Source: Patescibacteria group bacterium
GTDB taxonomy: Bacteria; Patescibacteriota; Microgenomatia; UBA12405
Direction: 5' to 3'
Assembly: GCA_018902845.1 (NCBI GenBank)
Contig: JAHIPV010000007.1
Coordinates: 6,989-70,988 of the forward strand
Length of the DNA stretch: 64,000 nucleotides
Shown here: positions 7,863-48,760 of the stretch, one piece after another
Layout of the letters: each line of letters opens with the position of its first letter
Position numbering within the stretch: the first letter of the stretch is position 1
Position numbers and translations under genes: made by a program
The notes under the pieces: model-generated
What the model was told of the DNA's origin: nothing
Databases searched by the model: none
The model's input: the letters and a program-made list of their open reading frames with translations, nothing else

Positions 7863-8198
7863 TTATTTTGTTTCCTCTTTTTTGGCTTCTGTGGTTTTGG
7901 GAATGATTGTTTCCTTGTTTTTGTGGGCGACCGCAAGGGTCGCCCCTACATTCTTTTTTTTCTTGATGGGATACTTTTCTGGATGGAGAAGTTTGTCTAC
8001 GCCTTCTGATATTTGAGCACCTTTTTTAACCCAACTTTCCATTGCTTCTTTGTCTATTTTGAGTGTTTTTGTTTGTGGTGTATAGAAGCCCAGGTCTTCT
8101 AAAAATTTTCCGTTTGCTTTCTTTTGTTTTTCAGTAACCACAATTCTGAAAGTTCGTTGGTGTTTTTTTCCTTTTGGAAATAATCTTATTCTTAGCAT
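7863..8198 (-). CDS. rpsP: 30S ribosomal protein S16 with repeat-derived C-terminal extension
   Basis: MLRIRLFPKGKKHQRTFRIVV...GFYTP matches S16; C-terminal tail contains in-frame copy of 26-nt palindromic repeat (encodes VGATLAVA). Confidence 0.8.
   Translation of the reverse strand: MLRIRLFPKGKKHQRTFRIVVTEKQKKANGKFLEDLGFYTPQTKTLKIDKEAMESWVKKGAQISEGVDKLLHPEKYPIKKKKNVGATLAVAHKNKETIIPKTTEAKKEETK
7925..7950. repeat. repeat family A copy 1 (gggcgaccgcaagggtcgcccctaca; 7-bp stem, GCAAG loop)
   Basis: Identical 26-mer also at 9268-9293, 14111-14136 and 19341-19366; this copy lies inside the rpsP 3' coding region. Confidence 0.9.
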
Positions 8199-8952: not shown

Positions 8953-9421
8953 GTTCCTCCAGAGGCGGACTGCGCGTTCGCTTGTTATTAGGTCTAATTT
9001 TTGACAAGCCGGTGCCAAGGACGCCATTTATAAAAGAAGCAGAGGTTTGAGCACTGAATTCTTTAGCCAGCTCGATGGCTTCATCAATAATAACTTTGGT
9101 TGGTGTTTTGGGTTTGTGAAGTAATTCCCAACAGGCGGTTCTTAGAATTGCCAGATCGACCTTGTTAATTTGCTCCAGTGGCCATTTGGGTGCACTGTCT
9201 TTGATAATTTTATCTATTTTTTTGATATTTTTGATGATGGCAGAGAAATCTTTGTTTTTTCCAAAGCGGGCGACCGCAAGGGTCGCCCCTACATTGGATG
9301 GTTTTGCTCTTTTCGTGGCAGATAAGCTTGTTTGTTTGTTTGGGGTTTGGAATTGCCAGGCAAAAACAGAACGCATGGTTTTTAGTCGGTGGACATGACG
9401 AGGATCTTTTTTGCTTTTCAC
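8912..9421 (-). CDS. nusB: transcription antitermination factor NusB (with in-frame repeat insertions)
   Basis: KVDLAILRTACWELLH...PTKVIIDEAIELAKEFS...SFINGVLG NusB motifs. Repeat A (VGATLAVA) sits in-frame near the N-terminus. Hairpin repeat B (RSPPLE) sits in-frame in the C-terminal tail. Confidence 0.7.
   Translation of the reverse strand: MKSKKDPRHVHRLKTMRSVFAWQFQTPNKQTSLSATKRAKPSNVGATLAVARFGKNKDFSAIIKNIKKIDKIIKDSAPKWPLEQINKVDLAILRTACWELLHKPKTPTKVIIDEAIELAKEFSAQTSASFINGVLGTGLSKIRPNNKRTRSPPLEEHEKNKTTRKKTKN
9268..9293. repeat. repeat family A copy 2 (inside nusB)
   Basis: Exact 26-mer gggcgaccgcaagggtcgcccctaca. Confidence 0.9.
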
Positions 9422-14110: not shown

Positions 14111-14136
14111 GGGCGACCGCAAGGGTCGCCCCTACA
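14111..14136. repeat. repeat family A copy 3
   Basis: Exact 26-mer; followed by aaagagctcgcaatgaca as in the 19.2-kb MITE. Confidence 0.9.
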
Positions 14137-19202: not shown

Positions 19203-19380
19203 TTGTTGTCATTGCGAGGAAATCACGTTTAAATTTCTTAATTTATTACGTGACGACGTGGCAATCCCGTAGGGATTTTAATCACGTTTTTTACATTTCC
19301 AACTGGGATCCTCCAGAGGTGGACACGTTGCCATGGAAATGGGCGACCGCAAGGGTCGCCCCTACAAAAGGCAATGACAA
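19203..19380. mobile_element. ~178-bp MITE-like element with terminal inverted repeats ttgtcattgc...gcaatgacaa, containing repeat A and a hairpin-B variant
   Basis: TIRs read directly; internal gggcgaccgcaagggtcgcccctaca (19341-19366) and cctccagaggtggac (19310-19324). Confidence 0.6.
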
Positions 19381-29768: not shown

Positions 29769-30604
29769 TGTGTTTGGTAGAATTTTGTAATAATTGATTT
29801 TAGATTACTGAATATTTCCAAGGAATATTGGTTTGTTTTGCTTAGTTCTTTTTTGGATTGTGGATAAAAGTTATTAAATTTATTACCATATTGTTTTTGT
29901 TCGGTTTTTTTTAAAGCTGTGTTGAGATTGTCACGGGCTATGTCCATTTTAATAAAAACATCTGATGTCCAATTCTGTCCTTCTGTTTCAATTTGATCTG
30001 AGTTTTGTATTTTTGTGGCAAGATTTTTTAGTTCGTTTAAAATTTGTTCGTAGTTGTTGCATTGATTTTGGACAATTGATGTATAAATTTCTTTTTGAAT
30101 GCTATTGTATTTGGATTGAAAATTTTGGCCATTTTGAGAAAGGTCATCCAAATTACTTAATGAGTCAACAATAATGTTTTGTTCTTTTAACCACGAAATC
30201 CATTTTTCTAATTCAATTTGATTTTTTTTGGTATTTGTAGGATTGTTGTCAGAATATTCTGATAATTTGGTTTTTAGGGCGAGAATATATTTTTGTAATA
30301 ATGTGTTTCTGGAGATGATGGCTTTTTTGGTCCACTCCATTTTTTCCTTTTCGGTGGTAATTGTCCCGTATTTAGTGTGAGTTTCTTTTTTTTCAGTGTA
30401 TTTTAAATAGGCTTGGCTGTATTCTTGTTGTTGGTTTAAATAATCTTTTTTGGCTTGTTGGTAAGGTGAAAGGGTGGGTGCGGGAGTTGGCGGTATCTCA
30501 GTTGGGGTTGGCAGGGAAATTGTGGCGGATTCGGTTGTTGGCGGGATAGCTAGAATGGGTTTTGAAATTAGAAGTAAGAAGCTTAGAAGAATAAGAGTAA
30601 GCAT
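29765..30604 (-). CDS. hypothetical secreted protein
   Basis: Signal-peptide-like N-terminus; 4-nt overlap with downstream ORF. Confidence 0.35.
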   Translation of the reverse strand: MLTLILLSFLLLISKPILAIPPTTESATISLPTPTEIPPTPAPTLSPYQQAKKDYLNQQQEYSQAYLKYTEKKETHTKYGTITTEKEKMEWTKKAIISRNTLLQKYILALKTKLSEYSDNNPTNTKKNQIELEKWISWLKEQNIIVDSLSNLDDLSQNGQNFQSKYNSIQKEIYTSIVQNQCNNYEQILNELKNLATKIQNSDQIETEGQNWTSDVFIKMDIARDNLNTALKKTEQKQYGNKFNNFYPQSKKELSKTNQYSLEIFSNLKSIITKFYQTQ

Positions 30605-30624
30605 AGTTTAGTGTAGCAGAAAAG

Positions 30625-30706
30625 TGCCGCAGAGAGGAGTCGAACCTCCACGCCCAAGGACACACGGTTCTAAGCCGTGCCTGTCTACCAATTCCAGCAC
30701 TGCGGC
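30625..30706 (-). tRNA. tRNA-Leu (anticodon TAG), long variable arm
   Basis: Reverse complement gccgcagtgctggaattggtagacaggcacggctTAGaaccgtgtgtccttgggcgtggaggttcgactcctctctgcggca. Confidence 0.75.
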
Positions 30707-30772
30707 GGATTAGCATATTTTAACCTTTTTTGATTAAAATTGGTAAAATATCGCATTGGTGATGATATTTTT

Positions 30773-30846
30773 GTCCTCATAGCTCAGTCGGATAGAGCGC
30801 TTGCCTTCTAAGCAAGAGGTCGGAGGTTCGAATCCTCCTGGGGATA
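30773..30846 (+). tRNA. tRNA-Arg (anticodon TCT)
   Basis: gtcctcatagctcagtcggatagagcgcttgcctTCTaagcaagaggtcggaggttcgaatcctcctggggata; acceptor stem with two G-U pairs. Confidence 0.7.
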
Positions 30847-30855
30847 CTTATTCAT

Positions 30856-30927
30856 GCGCCCATAGCTCAATGGATAGAGCATTGGTCTTCGGAACCAAGG
30901 ATGAAGGTTCAACTCCTTCTGGGCGTA
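30856..30927 (+). tRNA. tRNA-Arg (anticodon TCG)
   Basis: gcgcccatagctcaatggatagagcattggtctTCGgaaccaaggatgaaggttcaactccttctgggcgta. Confidence 0.75.
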
Positions 30928-30930
30928 CAA

Positions 30931-30992
30931 AAAGGTTCGCCAACTGGCGAATCAGTTGGTAGATCCGCCAGTTGGCGGACTCTTAAGCGATT
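30931..30992 (+). repeat. pseudo-tRNA-Lys 5' fragment (D-arm-like + hairpin + anticodon loop), broken off exactly at the GIY-YIG start codon
   Basis: ttcgccaactggcgaatcagttggtagatccgccagttggcggactcttaagcgat has the same unit as the two copies at 31401-31505. Confidence 0.7.
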
Positions 30993-31250
30993 ATGTATGT
31001 ATATGTAATAAAAAACAAAAAAACAGATAAAATATATATTGGCCAAACAAACAATTTAAAAAATAGACTTAAAAGACACAACGGGCATTTAAAAAACAAA
31101 GTAACAAGCTATACTTCGAAAAATAAAGGAGAATGGCAATTAGTATACAAAGAAGAATATGATACTAGAAAAAAAGCTATAAAAAGTGAGAAACAATTAA
31201 AATCTTACCAAGGCAGACAATATATAAAAAGAACAATCATGGGCCGTTAG
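30993..31250 (+). CDS. small GIY-YIG nuclease-domain protein (COG2827-like)
   Basis: YVYVIKNKKTDKIYIGQTNNLKNRLKRHN is a canonical GIY-X10-YIG...R..H motif; 85 aa; stop codon overlaps 5' end of tRNA-Lys. Confidence 0.7.
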   Translation: MYVYVIKNKKTDKIYIGQTNNLKNRLKRHNGHLKNKVTSYTSKNKGEWQLVYKEEYDTRKKAIKSEKQLKSYQGRQYIKRTIMGR

Positions 31251-31316
31251 CTCAGCTGGTAGAGCAATCGCCTCTTAAGCGATCGGTCAGAGGTTCGAAT
31301 CCTCTACGGCCCACCA
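31241..31316 (+). tRNA. tRNA-Lys (anticodon CTT), CCA encoded
   Basis: gggccgttagctcagctggtagagcaatcgcctCTTaagcgatcggtcagaggttcgaatcctctacggcccacca. Confidence 0.85.
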
Positions 31317-31505
31317 CTCAGTTGGTAGATCCGCCAGCTGGCGGACTCTTAAGCGATCGGTCAGAGGTTTCCGCCGGTAGGCGGACAGGCTACCTCTACG
31401 TTCGCCAACTGGCGAATCAGTTGGTAGATCCGCCAGCTGGCGGACTCTTAAGCGATCGGTCAGAGGTTTCCGCCGGTAGGCGGACAGGCTACCTCTACGG
31501 TCCAC
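31317..31505 (+). repeat. two tandem pseudo-tRNA-Lys units in which anticodon-stem 5' side and T-loop are replaced by TCCGCC-N4-GGCGGA hairpins
   Basis: Unit (ttcgccaactggcgaat)cagttggtagatccgccagctggcggactcttaagcgatcggtcagaggtttccgccggtaggcggacaggctacctctacg x2; compare the tRNA-Lys sequence. Confidence 0.75.
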
Positions 31506-31542
31506 TTAAAAAAAATTGTTTCACAAATTTTAAAATCTTAAA

Positions 31543-33048
31543 TCACAAATTCAAGTTTCTGAGTTTTTTTAAGAAGTTTAGGATTTTTTGTTTTATATTG
31601 GTTTTGGGGCGGAAGATAAGTGAGTTTTTTGTGATGGGAGTGAGTTGAATTGGATCAATGTTTTTCCAGCTGATGAAAGTGTTTGACTGAGGGATTTCTG
31701 ATGGAATTATTTGAAATGTAAATTTGAATTCGTGAGTTTGACCTGGTTCGATTATTTCATGGTTAGTACAAATAGGGCCCAATTCTACATTTGCTGTACT
31801 TTGAGGAGAAAGACAAAACGATGTTTCATTTTCTCCCCAAATTGATTGACCGGTATTTTTTAGTTTAATTTTTCCCTGGTATTTTTTTTGAGGAAAAATG
31901 ATAAAAGGTAGCTTTTTTTTAACCAATTCAGATTCAGTGATTTGTTGTGGGTTGTTTTGTTGTTTTGGTATATCTATTATTTTTTGGTATTGAGGATACA
32001 GGTTTTCTTGTTTGTCTACCCAAGAAAAATGGTCGAAAGGCGAATAGGGATAATTAAATATAAATGGAGTGACTGCTTGGATGCGGATATCCTGTTGCCA
32101 GAGTAGTATGGCGGATTTTAAAAAATCTGTGGCTGTGTTTAGGGTATAAAATTGATTGTTGTTTGATTCCCCTTCTCTGTGTGGCCAACCCGTTTCGGTG
32201 ATAAAGATTGGAAAGTTTTTATTAATTCCGAGAGATTTTAAGAAGTCTAATTCCCATTGATAGCCGAGAATACTAAATTTACCAATATCGGTTGGTTTGC
32301 CGATAAAACCTGGATTAGGGTATGAGTGAGAGGAAATAGCATCAATGTTATTGAAATAATCAGATTTATATTCAATTATTTGACGATAAAATGTGTCTGC
32401 AGACATAAACTGTGGGTTTTTATCAGGGGCAGCTAGGTCTAGTCCCGCACTTAAGATGTAAAAATTTGGATTAAGTTTTTTGAGTTTTTGGGAGGCATAA
32501 ACAGCGATATCGGTGTAGTGTCTTGGGTTGATTTTTCCACCCCATTCTTTTGATTGATTTGGCTCATTAAAAAGGATAATGTGTTGAGTTTTGGTGGGCC
32601 AGTTAAGCGAATTGAGAAAGTTGGCTAGTTTGTCTATATCTTGATAAACGGGGCTTTGCCAAATAGCATTTTGTTGGGTAGTTGCCAGTCTAATAATTGG
32701 AATAATATGATACTTTCGGCAATTATTAAAGAAATTTTGCCAAGCATTGTGATTGAGATTGTTAAGAGGAATTACAATAGTGGTCCAACCCCAGTCTGCG
32801 TTTGATGAATTTATAATATCTTTGGTTTTATGGATATCTGAGTCTTGTGTTAAATGAAGACCGAAAATGTTTCTCTCTTGGGAAAAAACAGGTTGGTTGT
32901 TTAATAACAAATAAATGATACTAAATAATAATAAAAGGAAGATTTTTGGCTTTTTCACTAGTAAAATATAACAGATGAAAAAAGAAGAAATTATAAAAAT
33001 GCGGATAAAGCGAGTTGAAAAGGAAATTCGTGACACACCATACGACAA
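31543..33048 (-). CDS. secreted glycoside hydrolase, clan GH-A (GH5-like)
   Basis: Signal peptide; IILFNEPN (acid/base NEP motif) and FITETGW (nucleophile) spaced as in GH5-type TIM-barrel hydrolases. Confidence 0.5.
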   Translation of the reverse strand: MSYGVSRISFSTRFIRIFIISSFFICYILLVKKPKIFLLLLFSIIYLLLNNQPVFSQERNIFGLHLTQDSDIHKTKDIINSSNADWGWTTIVIPLNNLNHNAWQNFFNNCRKYHIIPIIRLATTQQNAIWQSPVYQDIDKLANFLNSLNWPTKTQHIILFNEPNQSKEWGGKINPRHYTDIAVYASQKLKKLNPNFYILSAGLDLAAPDKNPQFMSADTFYRQIIEYKSDYFNNIDAISSHSYPNPGFIGKPTDIGKFSILGYQWELDFLKSLGINKNFPIFITETGWPHREGESNNNQFYTLNTATDFLKSAILLWQQDIRIQAVTPFIFNYPYSPFDHFSWVDKQENLYPQYQKIIDIPKQQNNPQQITESELVKKKLPFIIFPQKKYQGKIKLKNTGQSIWGENETSFCLSPQSTANVELGPICTNHEIIEPGQTHEFKFTFQIIPSEIPQSNTFISWKNIDPIQLTPITKNSLIFRPKTNIKQKILNFLKKLRNLNL

Positions 33049-34114
33049 AGCATCGGAGCATCATCATGGCAAATTGAAAGCTAAATTATCTAAGTTAAAG
33101 GAAGAATTGAGTGGGGTTTTTTCGGGTGGTGGTGGGGGTGGTGGTGGATATGCGATAAAACATTCCGGAGATGCCACCATAGTGTTAGTAGGGCCGCCTA
33201 GTGTGGGCAAATCCACCTTGTTGAATCAGTTGACCAATGCTGAATCGAAGGTTGGTAATTATGATTTCACTACTCTTGGAGTTGTGCCTGGAATGATGAA
33301 ATACAAAGGGGTAAGAGTACAGATTTTAGATTTGCCTGGTTTACTAAAGGGGGCTTTTGAGAATAAGGGTTTCGGAAAGAGAGTACTTTCTGTTATTAGA
33401 GCCAGTGATTTGGTTGTTTTAATGACGGATGTAAAAAGACCGGAATGGATAGATAAAATGGAGAATGAAATTAGCAAGGCGGGAATTAGATTAAATGAAG
33501 AAAAACCAAAAATAGTAATAAGGAAAATGCCGAGGGGGGCAATCCAAGTGGTTGATTCTTGTAATGGGTTGGGGAAGGAAGTAATTATTAGCGTAGTTAA
33601 AGAAATGGGATATTCAAACGCAGTGGTGAGTTTTGATGAAAAGATCGAGGATGTTGAAAAATTAATTGATGCTTTGACAAAATCTCGAAAATATTTGCCA
33701 ATGGTCAAGGTTGTTAATAAGATAGATGATCTTAAAAATCTAAACCTGAAATTTAAAATTTCCTCCTTCGCTAAAGCTATGGAGGACAAGCAAAATTCAA
33801 AATTCAAAGATGTGGTTTGTGTATCAGCGGAGAAGGGGTTGGGGTTGGATGAGTTTAAAGAAAAAATTTGGGAAAAACTTGGTTTGGTGAGAATTTTTTT
33901 GAAAAAAGAGAGAAATAAAAGCGCTGATAAAAGTGATCCATTGATTATAAAAAAGGATAGAAGATTGGATGATGTGTTAAATAAAATTTCGGGTGAGATG
34001 AGGGGTGATATTAAAAGGGCTTATATTTGGGGAAAAAAGGCAAAATTCGCCGGACAAGGTGTTTCTTTAAGAATGGAGGTTTTTGATGAAATGGAAGTGT
34101 GGTTTGGAAGATAA
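32975..34114 (+). CDS. DRG-family GTPase with C-terminal TGS domain (archaeal/eukaryotic-type)
   Basis: N-terminal KASEHHHGKLKAKLSKLKEEL (DRG signature), G1 GPPSVGKST, G3 DLPG, G4 NKID, C-terminal TGS-like segment. Confidence 0.65.
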   Translation: MKKEEIIKMRIKRVEKEIRDTPYDKASEHHHGKLKAKLSKLKEELSGVFSGGGGGGGGYAIKHSGDATIVLVGPPSVGKSTLLNQLTNAESKVGNYDFTTLGVVPGMMKYKGVRVQILDLPGLLKGAFENKGFGKRVLSVIRASDLVVLMTDVKRPEWIDKMENEISKAGIRLNEEKPKIVIRKMPRGAIQVVDSCNGLGKEVIISVVKEMGYSNAVVSFDEKIEDVEKLIDALTKSRKYLPMVKVVNKIDDLKNLNLKFKISSFAKAMEDKQNSKFKDVVCVSAEKGLGLDEFKEKIWEKLGLVRIFLKKERNKSADKSDPLIIKKDRRLDDVLNKISGEMRGDIKRAYIWGKKAKFAGQGVSLRMEVFDEMEVWFGR

Positions 34115-34119
34115 AATTT

Positions 34120-35202
34120 CTATTTCTCCATTAAAGAGCGGATGAGGAGGCTTCTGTTTTTTAGAGTTTGGGAAGAGAGTTTGGGGTATTTTTGGTAATA
34201 TTTTTTGGCAAGAGTATTGGGGCGGGGAGAAAATCTAAAGGTGTGAATTTTTTTAAAACCGATTTGTTGGCATAGATCGTGGGTTTGTTGAAAATCTTTT
34301 TGGGTTTCGCCGGGGAATCCGACGATGATGTCAGTGCCGAGTTTTAAATTTTTAATTTTTAATTTTAAATTTTTAATTTTTTTTATAATATCGTTGCGGG
34401 TGTAGGGGCGGTTCATGAGTTTTAGGATTTTGTCGGAGCCGGATTGGATGGGGATGTGGAGAAAATTTTTAATTCTTAGTTTGTTGTTTTTAATTAAATT
34501 TATAAATTTGTCGTCAATACAATTAATTGGAATTGAACCAAAACTTATGAGAGGAACGGAAGTTCTTTTGAGTAAAGTTTCAACTAGGTTGGAAAGGCCC
34601 GGTTTGTAAAAATTTAGATTAACTCCGGTAATAATAATTTGGGTAAAACCGTTTTTTATAGCTTGATTAGTTTGCCTGACAGCTTGTTTAATTGGCAGAT
34701 GCCATAAATATGATCGACGATAAGGGACAATACAATAAGAACAAAAAGAAATACAGCCGGATTGGATCTTTAATAGATATTTTTTGTGTTTTGTTAAGGT
34801 AGTTTGAATTTTGGTGGTATAGGGACAAGTAAGATTTTTTAATATTTTTTCTTTTGTTTTGTTGTTGATAATATGGGGGACGAGGCACGCCTCGCCCTTA
34901 CGTTTTTTTATATTGACACAGCCGGTTGCTATTATTTGGCTTTTGGGGAATTGTTTTTTTAGCGATCTTATTTTTTGCAGTGATTCTTTTTCCCCTTTTT
35001 GAGTGATGGCGCAAGTATTGATAATAACGAGAGACGGGAAATCGGATGTAGGATGCAAGAAGTGTTTGAAGCCGTGATTGATAAGGATTTGTGAAAGTTG
35101 ATTTGTTTCGGCGGCGTTGACACGACAGCCAAAGTTGAAAGCTAAAAAAGTTGGGTTAGTCTTGATGGAATTTATTAACCTAAAAAAGTTACCTTGATTC
35201 AT
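34120..35202 (-). CDS. radical-SAM methylthiotransferase (MiaB/RimO family) with in-frame AT-repeat insertion
   Basis: N-terminal MTTase Cys (FNFGCRVNAAE), CISFCSYC radical SAM motif, C-terminal TRAM-like; aatttttaattt repeat (34320-34390) encodes IKNLKLKIKNLKL. Confidence 0.65.
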   Translation of the reverse strand: MNQGNFFRLINSIKTNPTFLAFNFGCRVNAAETNQLSQILINHGFKHFLHPTSDFPSLVIINTCAITQKGEKESLQKIRSLKKQFPKSQIIATGCVNIKKRKGEACLVPHIINNKTKEKILKNLTCPYTTKIQTTLTKHKKYLLKIQSGCISFCSYCIVPYRRSYLWHLPIKQAVRQTNQAIKNGFTQIIITGVNLNFYKPGLSNLVETLLKRTSVPLISFGSIPINCIDDKFINLIKNNKLRIKNFLHIPIQSGSDKILKLMNRPYTRNDIIKKIKNLKLKIKNLKLGTDIIVGFPGETQKDFQQTHDLCQQIGFKKIHTFRFSPRPNTLAKKYYQKYPKLSSQTLKNRSLLIRSLMEK

Positions 35203-36421
35203 TTTGTAATTTTTCCATAAGGATTGAATAAAAACGTAAGTTGTGTATAGTAGCTAATCTTCCGGCTGTCATATCTTTTATTTTAAAAAGATGGGCAAGA
35301 TAAGAACGAGTATATTTTGTGCATAACAAACAATCGCATGCAGTACTGACTGGCTTGGTATCTCTGTAGTACTTTTCTTTATTAGGAACAAAATAAGAAT
35401 AAAATTTTTCTTGCCTGATATTTATTTTGTTAATTGAATCGGCGTTATAAACATAAAGCCTTTTGTGTCTGGCGTCCCGAGTTGGCAATACGCAATCAAA
35501 GATTTGCCAACCAAGATCAACACAATTAACAATTTCATCCGGTTTGCCTATACCAAGACCGTAAAGCAAGTAGTTTTTTGGGCTGTATTTGGCAATAATT
35601 TTTGCTATATCGTAATTAAATTGCCCGTCTTTATCTAGAGGCCAACCGCCATATCCAAGACCATCAAAACCAATTTTAACTAGTTTTTGAGTGCATTCTT
35701 TTCTCAAGTCTAAATATTCCCCTCCCTGGACTACTCCGAGCAGGTATGGACGATTTTTTTTGTTTAATTTTTGCTGTTTACAGATTTTTTCGAATTCTTT
35801 TTTGCAAATTTTAGCCCAAAGAATGGTGCGATCAACTGTTTCTTTGGCTTTTTGATAATTGGCTGTAGGTGTGGTGAAATCGTCTAGTACTACCACCATA
35901 TCGGTTTTTAGGGACATTTGGATTTGGATGGATTTTTGTGGAGTAAAGAGCGTGTCAGTATTTTTTGTTTGTTTGAATTTTACCCCTTTGTCTGTAACTG
36001 AATTTTCTCCGCCAAATTTTTTGGCCAAAGACATGATTTGAAAACCACCCGAATCAGAGATTATTCCGTGAGACCACGACATGAAATTACTTATGCCTTT
36101 GTGTAGTTTTATTGTTTGGATACCGGGATTATTGTGAAGGTGGTAAGTATTGACCAGTATTCCCGGTGTGTGAGTAGATTCAATATCTTTTGAATCCAGA
36201 GTTTTTAGAACAGCACGAGTGGCATCCGGAAAAAATACGGGAAGAAGAATTTTTTTGCTTTTAATAGTTTTGAAGTATTTTTTTCTGGTGGGTTTGGGTG
36301 GCATTTGTATATTATAATATGTAGACTTGAGATTAGCCGGGGTGGTCCGCCACAGGCGGATAAACTTCATTGGTATGTAAAATTTTAATTTATGTTTTAT
36401 GTATATGTACTTAAAAGTCAA
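35189..36421 (-). CDS. tgt: queuine tRNA-ribosyltransferase (tRNA-guanine transglycosylase)
   Basis: VVQGGEYLDLR, LYGLGIGKPDEIV, Zn site CDCLLCTKYTRSYLAHL. Confidence 0.8.
   Translation of the reverse strand: MTFKYIYIKHKLKFYIPMKFIRLWRTTPANLKSTYYNIQMPPKPTRKKYFKTIKSKKILLPVFFPDATRAVLKTLDSKDIESTHTPGILVNTYHLHNNPGIQTIKLHKGISNFMSWSHGIISDSGGFQIMSLAKKFGGENSVTDKGVKFKQTKNTDTLFTPQKSIQIQMSLKTDMVVVLDDFTTPTANYQKAKETVDRTILWAKICKKEFEKICKQQKLNKKNRPYLLGVVQGGEYLDLRKECTQKLVKIGFDGLGYGGWPLDKDGQFNYDIAKIIAKYSPKNYLLYGLGIGKPDEIVNCVDLGWQIFDCVLPTRDARHKRLYVYNADSINKINIRQEKFYSYFVPNKEKYYRDTKPVSTACDCLLCTKYTRSYLAHLFKIKDMTAGRLATIHNLRFYSILMEKLQNESR
36336..36360 (+). repeat. 5' fragment of tRNA-Leu (gccggggtgg) fused to hairpin tccgccacaggcgga, immediately upstream of second GIY-YIG gene
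   Basis: gccggggtgg is identical to the first 10 nt of the tRNA-Leu(TAA) gene 300 bp downstream. Confidence 0.6.
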
Positions 36422-36634
36422 AAAGTAAAGAAATATTATAAGGGTTTGACTGGTGATTTAGACAAACGATTGAGGCAACATTATAATGGTAAATCACTGA
36501 CAACGAAAAGATATTTACCATTAGAATTAGTATTTGTTCAGATATGTGCAAATAGGTTAGAAGCTGGAAAACTTGAAAAGTATTTAAAATCTGGTATAGG
36601 TCGTGAAATAATGGGAGAAATTGTTGTAAAATAA
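36392..36634 (+). CDS. small GIY-YIG nuclease-domain protein (second copy, COG2827-like)
   Basis: FYVYVLKS...KYYKGLTGDLDKRLRQHYNG GIY-YIG motif; 80 aa; immediately followed by tRNA-Leu. Confidence 0.65.
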   Translation: MFYVYVLKSQKVKKYYKGLTGDLDKRLRQHYNGKSLTTKRYLPLELVFVQICANRLEAGKLEKYLKSGIGREIMGEIVVK

Positions 36635-36643
36635 AGATGTTTT

Positions 36644-36727
36644 GCCGGGGTGGCGGAATTGGTATACGCGCAAGACTTAAAATCTTGTGTCCCTTGGGAC
36701 GTGTGGGTTCGACTCCCACCTTCGGCA
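36644..36727 (+). tRNA. tRNA-Leu (anticodon TAA), long variable arm
   Basis: gccggggtggcggaattggtatacgcgcaagactTAAaatcttgtgtcccttgggacgtgtgggttcgactcccaccttcggca. Confidence 0.75.
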
Positions 36728-36730
36728 CAT

Positions 36731-36804
36731 CGGGGATTGGCGCAATTGGCTAGCGCGCACGGTTTGGGACCGTGAGGCTGCAGGTTCGAATCCTGTATCC
36801 CCGA
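36731..36804 (+). tRNA. tRNA-Pro (anticodon TGG)
   Basis: cggggattggcgcaattggctagcgcgcacggttTGGgaccgtgaggctgcaggttcgaatcctgtatccccga. Confidence 0.7.
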
Positions 36805-36805
36805 C

Positions 36806-36960
36806 TGATCCGCTGAAGGCGGAAAATCATAAATCTAAATTTTCAAATCCTAAATTCTAATATCTAAATTCTAAATAAATTCAAATATCTAAATTCAAAA
36901 TTCAAAATAAGTCCAAACATTAAAATTGAAACTTAGGATAAATTAGAAATTATAAAAATT
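36806..36960. repeat. AT-rich low-complexity spacer with degenerate tctaaatt / ttcaaaat repeats
   Basis: Direct reading between tRNA-Pro and tRNA-Gly. Confidence 0.6.
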
Positions 36961-36979
36961 TAGTTAAGAATTGTTTTAA

Positions 36980-37050
36980 GCGGGATTAGTTGAGCGGTTC
37001 AACATCACCCTTCCAAGGTGAAAAGATGGGTTCGACTCCCATATCCCGCT
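36980..37050 (+). tRNA. tRNA-Gly (anticodon TCC)
   Basis: gcgggattagttgagcggttcaacatcacccttTCCaaggtgaaaagatgggttcgactcccatatcccgct. Confidence 0.7.
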
Positions 37051-37061
37051 CTGATTTTTGA

Positions 37062-37144
37062 GCCAGGGTGCTGGAATTGGTAGACAGGCGTCGCTCAGAA
37101 CGGCGTGTCCTTTGGGCGTGTGGGTTCGACTCCCACCCTTGGCA
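37062..37144 (+). tRNA. tRNA-Leu (anticodon CAG), long variable arm
   Basis: gccagggtgctggaattggtagacaggcgtcgctCAGaacggcgtgtcctttgggcgtgtgggttcgactcccacccttggca. Confidence 0.7.
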
Positions 37145-37146
37145 CA

Positions 37147-37195
37147 GTGAAAAATTTTTCCGCCAGAGGCGGACTAAAGAATTTTTAATTTGTAC
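37147..37195 (+). repeat. ~48-bp post-tRNA repeat containing hairpin tccgccagaggcgga (copy 1)
   Basis: gtgaaaaatttttccgccagaggcggactaaagaatttttaatttgt is nearly identical to 37599-37648. Confidence 0.7.
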
Positions 37196-37228
37196 TTTTG
37201 TTTTTAAACATTGTATAATTAGGATTAA

Positions 37229-37471
37229 ATGATAGTTTCAGTTCAAGAATTGACTGTAGGTCCAAATTCATTAACACGGGAAGGCTTGGAAAGAAAGATT
37301 CAATGGGTAGTGGAAGCAAGAAAAGTTGGTGTAGATGTTGTATTGCCTTCGATTAAGGATATGCCCATTGAAGCCTTGGTGCTTGCAGAAAGAGCGGGGG
37401 TTTATGGACCAGGCCAAAGAATGGTAGCTTTGAGGAGGTTGGTAAATGATGAGGATGCGATGGAAAAATAG
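37229..37471 (+). CDS. hypothetical small protein (higher-GC, inside tRNA cluster)
   Basis: ORF only. Confidence 0.25.
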   Translation: MIVSVQELTVGPNSLTREGLERKIQWVVEARKVGVDVVLPSIKDMPIEALVLAERAGVYGPGQRMVALRRLVNDEDAMEK

Positions 37472-37524
37472 TAAAATAATTTTAGAGAGAATTTTTTGTG
37501 TGGATTTTGTATAATATATGTTAA

Positions 37525-37598
37525 GCCGAAGTAGCCAAGATGGTCACGGCACTGGTCTGAAAAACCTGGGATGTTGGTTCGAGTCCAACCTTCGGCAC
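37525..37598 (+). tRNA. tRNA, probably Phe (anticodon GAA) with one U-U mismatch in anticodon stem
   Basis: gccgaagtagccaagatggtcacggcactggtctGAAaaacctgggatgttggttcgagtccaaccttcggca; good acceptor and T-arms, imperfect anticodon stem. Confidence 0.45.
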
Positions 37599-37648
37599 GC
37601 TGAAAATTTTTTCCGTCAAAGGCGGACTAAAGAATTTTTAATTTGTGT
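37599..37648 (+). repeat. ~48-bp post-tRNA repeat containing hairpin tccgtcaaaggcgga (copy 2)
   Basis: ctgaaaattttttccgtcaaaggcggactaaagaatttttaatttgt. Confidence 0.7.
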
Positions 37649-37679
37649 GGAGTAAAGAGAAGGATTTTAGATTAAATAT

Positions 37680-37752
<73 letters not shown>

Positions 37753-37823
37753 CAGATTTCCCGTGATTTATATCGAGGAATGTTTATTTATGTATGTTTT
37801 TGGGTTAAAATAGATTAGTTTTT

Positions 37824-37900
37824 TGGGTCTGTGGCTCAGTTGGTAGAGCGCTCGGTTTACATCCGAAAGGTCGCAGGTTCGAGTCCTGCCAGACCCACCA
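37824..37900 (+). tRNA. tRNA-Val (anticodon TAC), CCA encoded
   Basis: gggtctgtggctcagttggtagagcgctcggttTACatccgaaaggtcgcaggttcgagtcctgccagacccacca. Confidence 0.8.
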
Positions 37901-37901
37901 A

Positions 37902-37983
37902 GCCGAGGTGGCGGAATTGGTAGACGCGCACGCTTGAGGGGCGTGTATTGAAAGATGTGCAGGTTCAACTCCTGTCCTCGGCA
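37902..37983 (+). tRNA. tRNA-Leu (anticodon GAG), long variable arm
   Basis: gccgaggtggcggaattggtagacgcgcacgcttGAGgggcgtgtattgaaagatgtgcaggttcaactcctgtcctcggca. Confidence 0.7.
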
Positions 37984-37987
37984 CTTT

Positions 37988-38058
37988 TGTCCGGTCGTCT
38001 AATGGTAGGACACTAGCCTTTGAAGCTGGTTATCGTGGTTCGAATCCATGCCGGACAA
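37988..38058 (+). tRNA. tRNA-Gln (anticodon TTG)
   Basis: tgtccggtcgtctaatggtaggacactagcctTTGaagctggttatcgtggttcgaatccatgccggacaa. Confidence 0.7.
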
Positions 38059-38277
38059 CAGAATTTGAAGTGTATTTTTTTCGGGTGTTATGGTGTTTGG
38101 GAAGGCGGTTGGGAAGGTTTGGGGGGCAGACTTATGGGTTGGGCTTCGAGTTTTCTTAAGATATCAAAATCAATGCTTTTGTAAGAGATAATTCCGGCGA
38201 TTGTAAGAAGAATAAATAATAAAGAGATGAGAATGGTGCTGATTGTGTTTGGTTTGTTTTGAGTCATAGATTGCTAA

Positions 38278-39618
38278 TTATAAATTAGTTTTGGAAATGG
38301 AATAAACGGTTGGGTAATAAAGAAATACGGTTGGGCATTCTTCTAATAAAGATTTTTGGAAGTCCAGGTATATTTGTTTTCTTTCTTGAATATCAAAGCT
38401 TTGTCTTCCCTCTTCGAGAAGTTTGTCTATTTTGGGGTTGTTTAGTTTGCTGATATTGTTTTGCTGGGTTGAATGCCAGAATAAATATTGATCCGGATCT
38501 TGAGGGATACTTCCGTAGGCAAGGATAACATCGAACTCATCGGTGTTTATTTGATTTTCAACGGAGATGTTGGTTTCGATATTTAGAACTGATTGCCATG
38601 AATTTTTGATTTCTTCGGCTAAAGGTAGTAATTTTCTATTGTTTAATGTAATATCGATTTTCTCGATTGGATTGTCTTTGAAAAGTTCTTTGGCTCTGTC
38701 TGGATTGTAGTCGTATGTTTTGACAGAGTTGTTGTAAGCCCATGAGTTTGGTGATATAGGGCTGATACACCTGTTTTCGTTATCATCGTTTTTGGGTGTA
38801 GCATAGGATAAAGCTTGGCGAAGTGATTTTGTTTCTAATTTTTTTGTGTTAAAAAAAACGGCAACGTAGTTTTGATTTGCTAATGATTGTGGAGAGATTT
38901 TTGTATTTGGCCATTTGTCCAGTTCTTTTGGTGAAGAAATATTTTCAATTTTATTAATTTCACCAAGTTTAAAGGCACTAATTAGGCTTTCTTCATTATC
39001 ATAAAAAGTAAATTTTATTTTTTTTTGTCCTTTTTTTACTCCCTGAAGAAGTATGTTTTTTATGTAGCCTCCTTTGTAGTTAATTTCTTCAACTTTATAT
39101 GGTCCGATACCTATCAGTTTTTTTTGGTTTTTAAAGAGAGGTTGTTTTAGGATAGACAAAAGCGGGCTAAATGGTTTTTCCAAGCTTATTTTAATTTTAT
39201 CTTTGGTAATTTTTTCTATTTTAGCCCCTGAAATTTTATAGTCTATATCTTCAACATTAAATTTTTGGCCATTGTGCCAGTAATGATCTGTATCAATTGT
39301 AAATATAAATTCTTTGTTGTCATTTTGGGTAGTCCAGTCTTTAAGAAGTGGAGAATTAATGGGTTTGTTGTTATTACTTTCTTGGGTCAACCCAAAACTG
39401 ATTAAATCAGTAATATTTGAGGGTAGATTTTGATAAGTATAAAGTCCGGCAATACCTATTTTTTCTGTTTTTAGGTTGGGAGAGTTAATGAAATTTTTAG
39501 CTAAAGGCAAGACTATAAAGAACAAGGACCCGATAAAGATGCCTATGATTAGAAAAAGAAAGTTCTTTTTTATAAAAGCACTTATTAGTTTGATTTTGAA
39601 GTAAATTTTTTTAAACAA
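38278..39618 (-). CDS. extracellular solute-binding protein (ABC transporter SBP family 5-like)
   Basis: N-terminal TM/signal; size and sequence style of oligopeptide-type SBP; weak. Confidence 0.4.
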   Translation of the reverse strand: MFKKIYFKIKLISAFIKKNFLFLIIGIFIGSLFFIVLPLAKNFINSPNLKTEKIGIAGLYTYQNLPSNITDLISFGLTQESNNNKPINSPLLKDWTTQNDNKEFIFTIDTDHYWHNGQKFNVEDIDYKISGAKIEKITKDKIKISLEKPFSPLLSILKQPLFKNQKKLIGIGPYKVEEINYKGGYIKNILLQGVKKGQKKIKFTFYDNEESLISAFKLGEINKIENISSPKELDKWPNTKISPQSLANQNYVAVFFNTKKLETKSLRQALSYATPKNDDNENRCISPISPNSWAYNNSVKTYDYNPDRAKELFKDNPIEKIDITLNNRKLLPLAEEIKNSWQSVLNIETNISVENQINTDEFDVILAYGSIPQDPDQYLFWHSTQQNNISKLNNPKIDKLLEEGRQSFDIQERKQIYLDFQKSLLEECPTVFLYYPTVYSISKTNL

Positions 39619-40245: not shown

Positions 40246-42017
40246 TTTTTTTGTTTAACTAGTATTATACCGCCTAAGGTAAGTAGACCAATAATAATGA
40301 TTACGAAGCTCGTGGTGTTTTGGTGGTGTTGTGGATATGGAACTATTTGGGTTTGTTTTTCTTGACCTTGTATATTTAAGGTGAATTCGAGATTTTTATT
40401 TTTTGGTAATAAAGAAAGTATGGGATTAATTTTTGGAAGGTTAAACTCTAGACGGGAGAAAGGAGGCATGATGTCTATTTTTTGAGTCCAGTTTTGTTTT
40501 TTGATGGATAAATCGATGTTTTTTGTAGACGAAGAATTATTGTTTTGAATAATAACTTTTGTTCCGCCAAAGGCGGACTGTGCTGACGCTTGTTTGCTTT
40601 TACTTAAAAAAATGATTGGATCAGTATTTTCCGGATGAATGCGATGGTTGGCAAAATCGACTTTAATGCTTTTTTGTTGAGTTGAATTTTTGTATGATCC
40701 CGGAGGAGCGGGATACTGACTGTTGTGTCCGTGGATAACGAAGACAATGTGGTTTAGGTCGGTGTTAGAAAAATAGTCTATTCCTTCGGTTGTTTTTTCC
40801 CAGGTTGGATCGATTGTGATCCACGCATTTTTTTCTTTGTCCCAGAATTGAGGCCAGGCATGAAGAATATCGGTATTGATATTGACCGGTTTTAGTTCCG
40901 GTTTGTTGGTAAAAGCGTAGCCCTCTATTTCTTGGGCAGGGATTGTTTTGTTTCGGGCTAAAGTTATGAAAAGATCGGTAAATTCAGTGCAGAGAGAATT
41001 TGCTGGATTGATGAGTGCTGTTAGAGCGCCTTTTCTTTTGGCTTGATCGATTTGTTGGTAATCGTAATCAAGAGTGTTAACAACATATTGGTAAATGTCT
41101 TTGGCTGAGTGAAGATTGGAGTTTATCTTTTGGATATTAGGATCATTTACCGGCCAAAATTTTTGTTCTACGGTGAGTTTTTGAAAGTCAGGCGGATTGT
41201 CAAAAGAATAATCTATTGGGTGTACTTCAGCTTGACCGGTGACAATGATTTCTTTTTGAGTGTTGCTGTTTAATTGATATTCTGCCAGCCAGTTTCCGTC
41301 CAGGTCTGCGACAATGTTTTCCGGTGAAGGATCGATTTTAGTGATGATTATATTTTGTGTATTGGTATCAGGAGGAATAGGTATGGAGGTTCTTATGTTA
41401 TCTTGGGCTTTATTTTCAAGAAAAAATTTCAATTCAAAATCGAAAATTTGCGTGTTTCCAAACGCCATGGTAATTTTTTGTTTTTGTTTATTGTTGAAAA
41501 AAATTTCTTTGTAATTTTTTTGTTGTTTTATTTCATTTTTGACAGAACAAAAGACAAGATTGCCAAAATCATCCGGTATTTTTAGAGAGATTTGACTATT
41601 TGTTTCGTTTTGTTGTGGTAGATTAATTTCCCAAAGTTGTCCTTTTTGTTGGGCCAGACCAGGGATGGAATAGTTTATATTGAAGTTGGTTTTTTTGTTT
41701 TTTCCTGAAGTAGGATTATTAAATTTTATTTTTATAGTTGTGTTTTCTGCTGTTTTATCGGTACTTTGAATAATATCACCGTATGGATCTGATCCTTTTA
41801 TGTTTTCTATGTTTTGGCCAAAGATTTCCAGTAGATATTCCTTGGGATAGATGTTGGAGAAATTGTTAGTGATACTGATTTGGTGTATTACCTTGGCGTT
41901 GCCATGTTCGTCGATGGAGTAGGAAACTTTTTGGGTGGTGTTAAATTCATTATCAGTAGATAAAACTAAAATTGGATTTAGGAGAAAGAGAAGAAAGATA
42001 AGGATAAGTTTTTTCAT
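40242..42017 (-). CDS. secreted transglutaminase-like (Cys-His-Asp) domain protein with C-terminal TM anchor
   Basis: SLCTEFTDLFITLARNKTIPAQEIEGYAF...HAWPQFWD...IDPTW matches transglutaminase-like core; signal peptide; in-frame hairpin-B repeat at 40562-40580 (encodes ASAQSAFGG). Confidence 0.55.
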   Translation of the reverse strand: MKKLILIFLLFLLNPILVLSTDNEFNTTQKVSYSIDEHGNAKVIHQISITNNFSNIYPKEYLLEIFGQNIENIKGSDPYGDIIQSTDKTAENTTIKIKFNNPTSGKNKKTNFNINYSIPGLAQQKGQLWEINLPQQNETNSQISLKIPDDFGNLVFCSVKNEIKQQKNYKEIFFNNKQKQKITMAFGNTQIFDFELKFFLENKAQDNIRTSIPIPPDTNTQNIIITKIDPSPENIVADLDGNWLAEYQLNSNTQKEIIVTGQAEVHPIDYSFDNPPDFQKLTVEQKFWPVNDPNIQKINSNLHSAKDIYQYVVNTLDYDYQQIDQAKRKGALTALINPANSLCTEFTDLFITLARNKTIPAQEIEGYAFTNKPELKPVNINTDILHAWPQFWDKEKNAWITIDPTWEKTTEGIDYFSNTDLNHIVFVIHGHNSQYPAPPGSYKNSTQQKSIKVDFANHRIHPENTDPIIFLSKSKQASAQSAFGGTKVIIQNNNSSSTKNIDLSIKKQNWTQKIDIMPPFSRLEFNLPKINPILSLLPKNKNLEFTLNIQGQEKQTQIVPYPQHHQNTTSFVIIIIGLLTLGGIILVKQKK

Positions 42018-48576: not shown

Positions 48577-48760
48577 GATTTGGAAAAAGTTCGAATCCAC
48601 CTCGGGCGGACAGGCTATTTTTTATGAATTATTAAGCTTCCTCCTTCGCCAAGGCTTCGGAAGGACGAAGTCGCTTGGGGGCGGTGACCGCATCCACCGC
48701 CCCCATAGTTTATCCTGAAATTTCTGAAGGACTCCGCCTACTGCCTTTCAGAAATATTGG
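48571..48760. repeat. left arm of large imperfect inverted repeat (partner 55420-55545) with internal hairpin mini-indels
   Basis: The reverse complement of 48665-48742 is identical to 55421-55497 over ~78 bp. Additional matching blocks (taataattcataaaaaat; cgaactttttccaaatcgctcac) are separated by 23-35-bp palindromic indels. Confidence 0.75.

Follow-up and report, generated by a model that had tools for sequence, protein, structure and literature searches.

The stretch of DNA analyzed here (the window) comprises 64,000 nucleotides (nt) of contig JAHIPV010000007.1 from a Patescibacteria group bacterium and carries a small GIY-YIG gene lodged in a tRNA-Leu(TAA) gene. We consider it probable, at roughly 60%, that positions 36336-36643 (308 bp) record the insertion of a selfish cassette of the homing type, one that is specialized for tRNA genes. 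The sole gene of this cassette is a minimal Slx1/UPF0213-like GIY-YIG open reading frame (ORF) of 80 amino acids (aa), here called ORF 2, which lies in sense orientation and is flanked on both sides by host tRNA sequence. One flank is a complete functional tRNA, so that the host loses nothing by the insertion; the other is a redundant arm, which comprises the 5' part of the tRNA up to the anticodon loop in the window and the 3' part at other loci.

Partial and intact copies of tRNA-Leu(TAA)

A sequence-only reading of the window had drawn attention to the first ten nucleotides of tRNA-Leu(TAA), joined to a hairpin, upstream of the GIY-YIG ORF, with the intact tRNA following the ORF, and it had these features in their right places (Table 1). 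The 10-mer GCCGGGGTGG lies at 36336-36345 and again at 36644-36653, where it forms the first ten bases of the intact gene. The similarity, which that reading had allowed might end with the 10-mer, extends well beyond it: all of the first 22 nt of tRNA-Leu(TAA) are kept in order, with tRNA positions 1-10 at 36336-36345, 11-14 at 36357-36360 and 15-22 at 36369-36376, separated by inserts of 11 and 8 nt (the second being taaacttc), and a remnant TAAAAT at 36378-36383 matches the anticodon loop of the same tRNA. Placement of the first gap in the alignment is ambiguous (tRNA positions 1-8 or 1-10, the 11-nt insert, then 9-14 or 11-14). The hairpin inserted in the partial copy folds with -8.9 kcal/mol (z-score -4.6) and belongs to a family of hairpins in the window with the form T[CT]CGCC-N3-4-GGCG[GA]A.

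Table 1. Features of the two GIY-YIG/tRNA loci in the window.
Feature	Position	Strand	Basis
Native 5' flank of the tRNA operon	36302-36335	+	Conserved with the empty-site relative L083
Partial, interrupted copy of tRNA-Leu(TAA)	36336-36383	+	Gapped alignment to the intact tRNA
GC-rich hairpin TCCGCC-ACA-GGCGGA, TCCGCCACAGGCGGA, inserted in the partial copy	36346-36360	.	
ORF 2, 80-aa minimal GIY-YIG putative nuclease, Slx1/UPF0213-like clade	36392-36634	+	
Intact tRNA-Leu(TAA)	36644-36728	+	ARAGORN and Rfam (58.6 bits)
Partial pseudo-tRNA-Lys copy (D-loop, anticodon loop, 3' anticodon stem)	30935-30991	+	
ORF 1, 85-aa GIY-YIG	30993-31250	+	Pfam PF01541, E = 9.3e-17
Intact tRNA-Lys(CTT)	31241-31316	+	Rfam (73.6 bits)
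Two ORF-less pseudo-tRNA-Lys copies directly 3' of tRNA-Lys(CTT)	31317-31502	+	

The start codon of the divergently transcribed tgt gene (36302-36304, minus strand) lies within the 5' flank, as does a TATAAT box (36313-36318) that is located 17 nt 5' of the partial copy, is common to the window and its relative L083, and may be the promoter of the tRNA operon. On the other side, the stop codon of ORF 2 ends 9 nt 5' of the intact tRNA-Leu(TAA), which heads a tRNA cluster in the order Leu, Pro, Gly, Leu, Phe, Gly, Val, Leu, Gln. An Rfam scan of 30000-39000 at E <= 1 returned intact tRNAs only, with no match for the partial copy or the hairpin, and a known RNA family, a group I intron or a riboswitch as identity of the leader was rejected on this basis. 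An intrinsic terminator on the sense strand was likewise rejected as a role for the hairpin, since no T-run follows it and terminator-like geometry is found only on the opposite strand.

Chance similarity or an assembly artefact is in our view a negligible prospect as an explanation of this arrangement. The 10-mer taken alone is weak, and a third copy of GCCGGGGTGG occurs at 3897-3906, inside a coding region and without tRNA-like context; this copy looks like a product of chance, even though a single-base composition model expects only 0.01 per strand. In a given 100-nt window the chance expectation for a 10-mer is 1.6e-5, and the gapped score of the partial copy (31.2) was equalled by 4 of 1464 control windows. 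Against chance or artefact stand the 22 nt in order, the occurrence of the arrangement in dozens of genomes including those of cultured isolates, and the clean reconstruction of an empty site.

Occupied and empty sites in relatives

Relatives of the locus were found by searching metagenome contigs with the neighboring tgt protein. Contig L083, whose tgt protein is 90% identical to that of the window, has no GIY-YIG gene at the site; its intact tRNA-Leu(TAA) starts at a distance of 32 nt from the tgt start, at precisely the point where the partial copy begins in the window. After removal of the 308 nt at 36336-36643, the window and L083 are identical at 195 of 210 positions in a gap-free alignment, and their tRNA-Leu(TAA) genes agree at 84 of 85 nt. 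The pair presents an occupied and an empty allele of a conserved target, as in free-standing homing endonuclease genes.

In the more distant contig L085 (tgt 69% identical) the same site is occupied by a GIY-YIG ORF with 48% identity to ORF 2, and the partial copy breaks at the same point of the anticodon loop as in the window (cttaaaattt, directly followed by ATG). The L085 ORF has an apparent frameshift in an A-run (aaaaataaaaaaaagc, at about 1400-1420 on the minus strand), which could be a sequencing error, decay or slippage. L125 (tgt 67% identical) carries a GIY-YIG ORF at a different place, between other tRNAs. The closest protein homolog of ORF 2 (P0002, 71% identical, locus L082) resides at a different Leu tRNA gene, directly 3' of tRNA-Leu(GAG) in a Gly(gcc)-Val(tac)-Leu(gag) cluster; the matching cluster of the window (37680-38059) is unoccupied, the corresponding tRNA-Leu(GAG) site being 37902-37988. 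Taken together, these comparisons indicate that occupancy differs between relatives and between Leu tRNA genes.

The sequence-only reading had also described an earlier GIY-YIG gene in the window as having the same architecture, and this description held: a hairpin-interrupted copy of tRNA-Lys, ORF 1 and the intact tRNA-Lys(CTT) follow one another at this second locus, the stop codon TAG of ORF 1 (31248-31250) falling within the intact tRNA. The two proteins are 36% identical. The partial copy of 57 nt contains two 16-nt hairpins (30936-30951 and 30964-30979), folds with -32.1 kcal/mol (z-score -6.8), and is 98% identical to the repeats that lie 3' of tRNA-Lys, of which it represents a third, truncated member. 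Those repeats, the pair of ORF-less pseudo-tRNA-Lys copies, are 99% identical across an 86-nt repeat at a spacing of 99 nt. Each is broken by two or three hairpins of the TCCGCC-type family, with GC hairpins of 16-23 nt replacing the acceptor/D-stem, D-stem/anticodon-stem and T-loop segments.

Recurrence of the layout across bacteria

A protein-alignment scan with one genome per species returned at least 556 relatives, and the best 80 loci were kept for counts. These loci come from Bacteroidota, Patescibacteria, Ignavibacteriota, Acidobacteriota, Omnitrophota and other phyla, and among the cultured Bacteroidota the layout is found in Zunongwangia, Namhaeicola, Ulvibacterium and Brumimicrobium. 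The association of further small GIY-YIG ORFs with tRNA fragments, which the sequence-only reading had proposed to look for, is present on a broad scale: a tRNA on the same strand lies within 150 nt of the ORF in 60 of the 80 loci (downstream in 45, upstream in 12 and on both sides in 3). Where the tRNA is downstream, about 34 of the 40 testable loci contain a copy of its 5' portion in the 140 nt that precede the ORF. No opposite-strand tRNA occurs within 150 nt of the ORF in any of the 80 loci, and across all loci 92 tRNAs are on the ORF strand and 3 on the opposite strand. Together with the longer partial copy and the empty site, these counts bear out the earlier preference for a mobile GIY-YIG/tRNA module over chance.

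Of the 40 loci whose tRNA is downstream, 26 have an ORF that terminates within the tRNA gene. A mirror layout, in which an intact tRNA is followed at 0 nt spacing by the ATG, the ORF and a 3' tRNA fragment, is found in L029, L035, L066, L082 and others. Tandem arrays of two to four units, 95-100% identical, terminate at an intact tRNA. A neighbor-joining tree built on about 75 aa has low resolution, and the grouping by tRNA isotype that it displays is only qualitative.

A sister clade of the same GIY-YIG family (L039, L045, L051, L058, L062, L065 and L071) is not linked to tRNAs. Its ORF is flanked by inverted repeats of 13-15 bp beginning with CCCCGTTAGAA (CCCCGTTAGAAAT...ATTTCTAACGGGG), which are conserved across Bacteroidota and Patescibacteria, and in L039 (1911-3232) the element splits a gene resembling a Y2-type (IS91-like) transposase, between ...AILHT and GQTLVYHPHIH..., the HPHIH motif having been recognized by eye. 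A phage origin was rejected for the family, since only five relatives are present in 2.9 million viral contigs (IMG/VR) and the PHROGs matches are weak and confined to the motif.

Palindromes in the partial tRNA copies

GC hairpins peak sharply in the 100 nt 5' of the ORF, where 48 were counted in the 80 loci, compared with about 1-2 per 100-nt bin elsewhere. By gapped alignment the palindrome is a precise insertion of 19-21 nt in the partial copy, with no tRNA bases lost or duplicated, and the sequence flanking it is essentially identical (~100%) to the intact tRNA. It occurs most commonly between tRNA positions 22 and 23, where D-loop and D-stem meet; insertions are also found at 9/10, 15/16, 32/33 and in the T-loop, and longer partial copies contain two or three palindromes. 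The exact 20-mer CCTGCCTGCCGGCAGGCAGG occurs at 28 of 51 sites, in different phyla, and base changes in the variants compensate one another, in agreement with a structure of 6-bp stem, TGCC loop and CAGG tail. One asymmetric variant was found in both orientations.

We rejected the possibility that the palindrome is a general genomic repeat, as it is nearly restricted to loci with a GIY ORF or a partial tRNA: 59 of the 62 palindromes have a GIY ORF no more than 450 nt away, and 182 kb of control loci selected only for tgt contained no palindrome. Footprints consisting of a partial tRNA and palindrome without an ORF occur at L023:4473, L082:230-290 and, in the window, at 31317-31502. Both window elements carry hairpins of the TCCGCC type, whereas the closest relatives of ORF 2 carry the CCTGCC type, indicating that hairpin type tracks the genome and not the ORF lineage. 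A second small hairpin unit, AGCCACGGCTGGTAAAC, is nested in the center of the CCTGCC palindrome 5' of the ORF in L003/L010 and in L056, which are different Bacteroidota genomes and have the unit in opposite orientations; hairpin loops themselves thus seem to be insertion targets.

The palindrome and the tRNA arms also leave a mark on protein databases. Among 1.84 billion representative proteins, 7,778 clusters (50% identity) match the subfamily profile at E <= 1e-10. N-terminal extensions were called for 64 of the top 150 profile matches, and at least 35 of these 64 are, by heuristic pattern matching, translations of the palindrome or of tRNA arms. Motifs derived from tRNA are AELVD/Y..., ..FES.. 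and GSNP, and those derived from the palindrome are LPAGRQA and PACRQAG. The spurious N- and C-terminal extensions in P0035-P0164 and in P0006, P0008, P0012 and P0018 constitute a systematic gene-calling artefact. In P0034 (655 aa), which by eye resembles HsdS, a restriction specificity subunit, two GIY-YIG domains occur in frame, each followed by the palindrome translation ...RQAG, and the sequence suggests insertion into both repeated regions of hsdS.

Origin and conservation of the arms

The main rival to homing, which we judge unlikely, is structure-guided duplicative insertion, a form of transposition. According to this explanation, an Slx1-like nuclease would make staggered cuts in an extruded tRNA-gene cloverleaf or hairpin, one at the acceptor-stem base and another close to the anticodon or T arm; the ORF would be ligated in, and fill-in would produce a long "target-site duplication" that is seen as the partial tRNA copy, while the palindromes would be non-autonomous partners placed at loop/stem junctions by the same enzyme. 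Such a process would fit the observation that the duplication often begins or ends at a tRNA end (the ORF abutting position 1, or the ATG following 0 nt after the 3' end), as well as the presence of both 5' and 3' layouts at one tRNA in the Gly(tcc) clade. It would also suit the precision of the palindromes, which mostly follow an unpaired A at loop/stem borders, the existence of nested insertions in palindrome centers, the tracking of hairpin type with genome and not with ORF clade, and the splitting of a Y2-transposase-like gene (by eye) by the sister clade with its CCCCGTTAGAA terminal inverted repeats.

However, a local duplication would make arm and tRNA identical at birth, and this is at odds with the locus of Zunongwangia pacifica (L002). 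The D-arm of its partial copy, GGCGC...GCGC, recurs without change in the arms and the resident tRNAs of L004 and L014 and is separated by six compensatory D-stem differences from the D-arm of the adjacent resident tRNA, AGTTC...GAAT. It follows that arm and resident tRNA differ in origin. No purely local duplication could yield such a pair, and this foreign-type arm weakens long target-site duplication as the sole origin of partial copies. Some duplications, moreover, run well beyond the tRNA end, taking in terminators in L018 and L032, for example; similarity between the window and L082 is limited to the ORF, which points to cassette ends without conserved sequence or structure; and no GIY-YIG enzyme is known to ligate or transpose DNA.

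A related and broader proposal, which we regard as possible though doubtful, is that GIY-YIG protein and 15-21-nt palindrome form a two-component, structure-guided DNA insertion system that operates without a transposase or recombinase. The nuclease would recognize extruded hairpins or the cloverleaf instead of a sequence, and would place both its own gene and the palindrome, or cause them to be placed, at the loop/stem junctions of hairpin-forming DNA, tRNA genes included. Were this proposal true, the elements would constitute a new class of mobile element, and a large share of the prokaryotic Slx1-like proteins, for long unexplained, would acquire a function.

The arm and palindrome are more conserved than the ORF, which identifies them as selected parts of the element. 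They are identical at 49 of 49 nt between L081 and L082, where synonymous divergence (dS) of the ORF is about 1.1, and over about 59 nt between L002 and L004 at an ORF dS of 0.79; L081 has no intact tRNA alongside that could act as a source of conversion. The protein is also maintained by purifying selection, as judged from ratios of nonsynonymous to synonymous divergence (dN/dS) of 0.07-0.21 between unsaturated pairs. With respect to transcription, the Bacteroidota promoter box TAnnTTTG is found 5' of the partial copy in 6 of 16 loci and 5' of the intact tRNA in 0 of 16, against a background of 3.6%. As this box and the TATAAT box of the window both precede the partial copy instead of the intact tRNA, co-transcription of the ORF with the functional tRNA is most likely.

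Conservation of this kind could also be read as the signature of a gene that serves its host, acting on structured DNA or R-loops at tRNA genes or in RNA processing, with the partial tRNA and hairpin as a regulatory leader or trailer. The strict sense orientation, the near-zero spacing to the tRNA, the purifying selection on the ORF and the conservation of arm and hairpin are all consistent with such a role, and a 2006 survey of GIY-YIG proteins described a fusion to the tRNA methyltransferase TrmH and suggested a role in RNA metabolism for prokaryotic Slx1-like proteins (PMC1564403). We nonetheless consider a host-beneficial role quite improbable, because presence or absence differs between close relatives (L083 being empty), closely related proteins sit at different tRNAs, and occurrence among phyla is patchy. 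Tandem arrays with as many as four copies, decayed or stop-containing copies (L014, L026, L049) and the occurrence of L081 without a tRNA argue in the same direction, and a single leader function is insufficient where the hairpin is 5' of the ORF in one layout and 3' of it in the other.

A minimal GIY-YIG protein

Both ORFs match Pfam PF01541 well above the cut-off of 22.6 bits (ORF 2, 53.8 bits, E = 2.4e-14; ORF 1, 61.5 bits). Residues Y5, Y16, R26, H30 and E62 of ORF 2 are invariant in 29 homologs, and its catalytic positions align with Tyr, Tyr, Arg and His of the UPF0213 protein BH0048. The AlphaFold2 model, with a predicted local distance difference test (pLDDT) score of 93.7, has the succession E2-9, E15-20, H23-31, H36-39, E44-52, H55-66 (E, strand; H, helix), and thus displays the beta-beta-alpha-alpha-beta-alpha pattern of GIY-YIG domains, in which helices flank a sheet of three strands. 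Pfam and the AlphaFold2 model revealed no domain in addition to the 80-aa catalytic core, and hence no DNA-binding module. Foldseek matched the model to 1zg2, Slx1, I-TevI and UvrC, including Slx1 7cq3 with a template modeling (TM) score of 0.69 and a root-mean-square deviation of 1.7 A, and profile searches against the Protein Data Bank (PDB) ranked 1zg2 (1.5e-12) and 1ywl (3.4e-12) ahead of Slx1 (5e-6) and I-TevI (9e-3). By sequence and predicted structure, then, the protein belongs to the Slx1/UPF0213 minimal clade, I-TevI and UvrC being more distant.

Slx1 is a structure-selective nuclease. From its sequence, the window protein is likewise a putative nuclease with tRNA genes as its presumptive target, and the association with hairpins and tRNA genes suggests a preference for branched or structured DNA.

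Since pseudo-tRNA adjoins the nuclease gene and pseudo-tRNA repeats are present at 31317-31502, we also considered a toxin/decoy or defense function, in which the protein would cleave tRNA and the pseudo-tRNA or hairpin RNA would act as decoy antitoxin. This function is very improbable. PADLOC yielded no meaningful match (none for ORF 2 and only short GIY-motif matches for ORF 1), and assignment to a defense system was rejected on that account. The GIY-YIG proteins that were matched (UPF0213, Slx1, UvrC, I-TevI) include DNA nucleases, and the intact tRNA abutting the ORF, the 3'-type layout and the geometry of the empty site would be left unexplained. We know of no RNA-cleaving GIY-YIG enzyme.

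Proposed mechanism of spread

A homing-type cassette could spread as follows. The nuclease would cut tRNA-gene DNA, probably at loop/stem junctions of structured DNA, a mode of cutting that we propose because of the Slx1-like ancestry of the protein. A copy that bears the cassette would then act as template for repair of the break in a naive tRNA gene: each broken end would find homology in one of the tRNA-derived flanks, and the ORF would be transferred in the process. The foreign-type arm of L002 and the tandem arrays are indirect hints of such copying. The observed arrays could arise if the intact copy is itself cleaved and then mended with the partial copy on a sister chromosome as template. 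The palindrome would most plausibly plug a cleavable or recombinogenic site in the redundant arm, so that the plugged arm escapes cutting and the direct repeats are kept from recombining and deleting the ORF. Expression would ride on the tRNA promoter 5' of the partial copy and on tRNA processing. The participation of double-strand-break repair and the function of the palindrome in the cassette are what we infer from these arrangements.

Several observations weigh against the homing interpretation. The lack of a DNA-binding domain makes sequence-specific homing unexpected by the standard of known GIY-YIG homing enzymes. Although the partial copy is interrupted by the palindrome, the intact tRNA is unchanged in the carrier allele and keeps any target borne by the tRNA, so that the occupied locus, unlike that of classical homing genes, is not obviously immune. 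The partial copy in the window is degenerate, and this copy of the cassette may no longer be mobile. Most of the 80 loci come from metagenome-assembled genomes, albeit with cultured isolates showing the same layout. Lastly, the same palindrome is found at different positions in different tRNAs by a route for which the model does not account, and a hairpin type that tracks the genome fits better with in situ insertion of palindromes in trans than with simple co-transfer.

Relation to known systems

SegB of phage T4, a GIY-YIG homing enzyme encoded among tRNA genes, is a much larger protein of about 200 aa with a separate DNA-binding region. Its 27-bp site includes a conserved motif of the tRNA T-arm, and segB spreads by cutting genomes that do not contain it and being copied in during repair (PMC2330249). 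SegB thus provides a precedent for a tRNA-gene target, and the embedding of a GIY-YIG gene among tRNA genes and its presence/absence polymorphism are features that the elements described here have in common with it. There are also differences. The window proteins have only 80-85 aa and no extra domain, and they are nearer to UPF0213/Slx1 than to I-TevI; segB lies between genes, whereas the ORFs described here are nested in a tRNA gene that is partially duplicated in compensation, and are accompanied by a conserved palindrome; and the GIY-YIG/tRNA elements are chromosomal and occur in many bacterial phyla. Homing endonuclease genes in general resemble the cassette in having occupied and empty alleles, but their usual DNA-binding module is missing here.

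The UPF0213 proteins (BH0048/1zg2 and EF2693/1ywl) are the nearest matches in sequence and fold, being minimal, single-domain proteins with the same catalytic residues, and YhbQ is a further prokaryotic stand-alone protein of the Slx1-like type. In contrast to the cassette, UPF0213 has no reported nesting in tRNA genes, partial tRNA copies or palindromes. In the 2006 survey, stand-alone Slx1-like proteins of prokaryotes appear as a "minimal variant" whose function was unknown, and neighboring tRNA genes are not mentioned (PMC1564403). A further paper includes GIY-YIG proteins in its list of horizontal gene transfers out of Patescibacteria (PMC12455944).

Elements that integrate into tRNA genes by means of an integrase (prophages, integrative and conjugative elements, and archaeal elements of the pNOB8 type) likewise duplicate a tRNA segment, leaving an intact gene and a leftover fragment. 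In bacteria, such elements duplicate the 3' part of the tRNA as attachment (att) repeats. An archaeal integrative element leaves a 5' tRNA fragment (PMC3293823). Integrase elements measure kilobases and encode a recombinase, whereas the cassette has 308 bp with a single GIY-YIG ORF, and no tyrosine or serine recombinase is present in the insertion. Furthermore, either end of the tRNA may be duplicated here and the fragment is plugged by a palindrome. Direct repeats of the 3' part of the att type are absent from the window, where the 5' part is duplicated, and the 3' fragments at other loci occur without an integrase.

Inverted repeats flanking the ORF, as expected of insertion sequences (IS), miniature inverted-repeat transposable elements or transposons, were found in the sister clade only and not in the tRNA-linked elements. 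Repetitive extragenic palindromes (REP) and bacterial interspersed mosaic elements (BIME) with their REP-associated tyrosine transposases (RAYT), the ends of IS200/IS605 elements and mitochondrial GC clusters are all short GC hairpins that are inserted precisely, without target duplication, and in near-identical copies within a genome. Unlike REP/BIME and IS200/IS605 sequences, the palindromes described here have no HUH (histidine-hydrophobic-histidine) transposase nearby, are located almost exclusively in partial tRNA copies beside GIY-YIG ORFs, and include a 20-mer common to several phyla. Searches of the open-access literature returned no description of the palindrome sequence, nor of GIY-YIG genes with partial or adjacent tRNA genes, and the arrangement by which a nuclease gene resides within tRNA genes is widespread and apparently has not been described before.

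Thousands of stand-alone prokaryotic Slx1-like GIY-YIG proteins have been without an assigned biology since the 2006 catalog. Our results suggest that a large subfamily of them are selfish tRNA-gene cassettes with built-in homology arms and a palindrome that crosses phyla, and that an essential gene can be parasitized by a new route that is neither intron nor integrase. The proposal is open to experiment with defined substrates (a tRNA gene and the 20-mer) and in cultivable carriers such as Zunongwangia. For genome annotation, it accounts for the N-terminal "extensions" and for many of the partial tRNA genes seen in bacteria. Should DNA structure prove to be what guides the enzyme, a practical tool might also come of it.

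Other repeats in the window

Additional TCCGCC-N3-GGCGGA hairpins occur at 36809-36823, 37159-37173, 37612-37626 and 40563-40577; they lie 3-14 nt 3' of the intact tRNA-Pro, tRNA-Leu(CAG) and tRNA-Phe, except for the copy at 40563, which adjoins no tRNA, and they are terminator-like on the minus strand (hairpin followed by a T-run). Between tRNA-Leu(CAG) and tRNA-Phe, in the region 37146-37524, an 80-aa ORF (37229-37471) without a match in Pfam or PHROGs is flanked by a 75-nt direct repeat (37119-37193 and 37572-37646, 87% identical) that consists of a tRNA 3' end, the TCCGCC hairpin and ctaaagaatttttaatttgt. The corresponding Leu(cag)-Phe gap measures only 130 nt in L085 and 72 nt in L125, so that the region may be a further inserted cassette.

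Two other repeats occur elsewhere in the window. A different palindromic repeat, GGGCGACCGCAAGGGTCGCCC followed by CTACA, is present in four identical copies (7925-7945, 9268-9288, 14111-14131 and 19341-19361); it looks REP-like and is unrelated to the tRNA hairpins. An inverted, GC-rich pair of 28 nt, ggggGCGGTGACCGCATCCACCGCcccc and its complement, is located at 48681-48700 and 55466-55485, 6.8 kb apart, and may mark the ends of an inserted segment.

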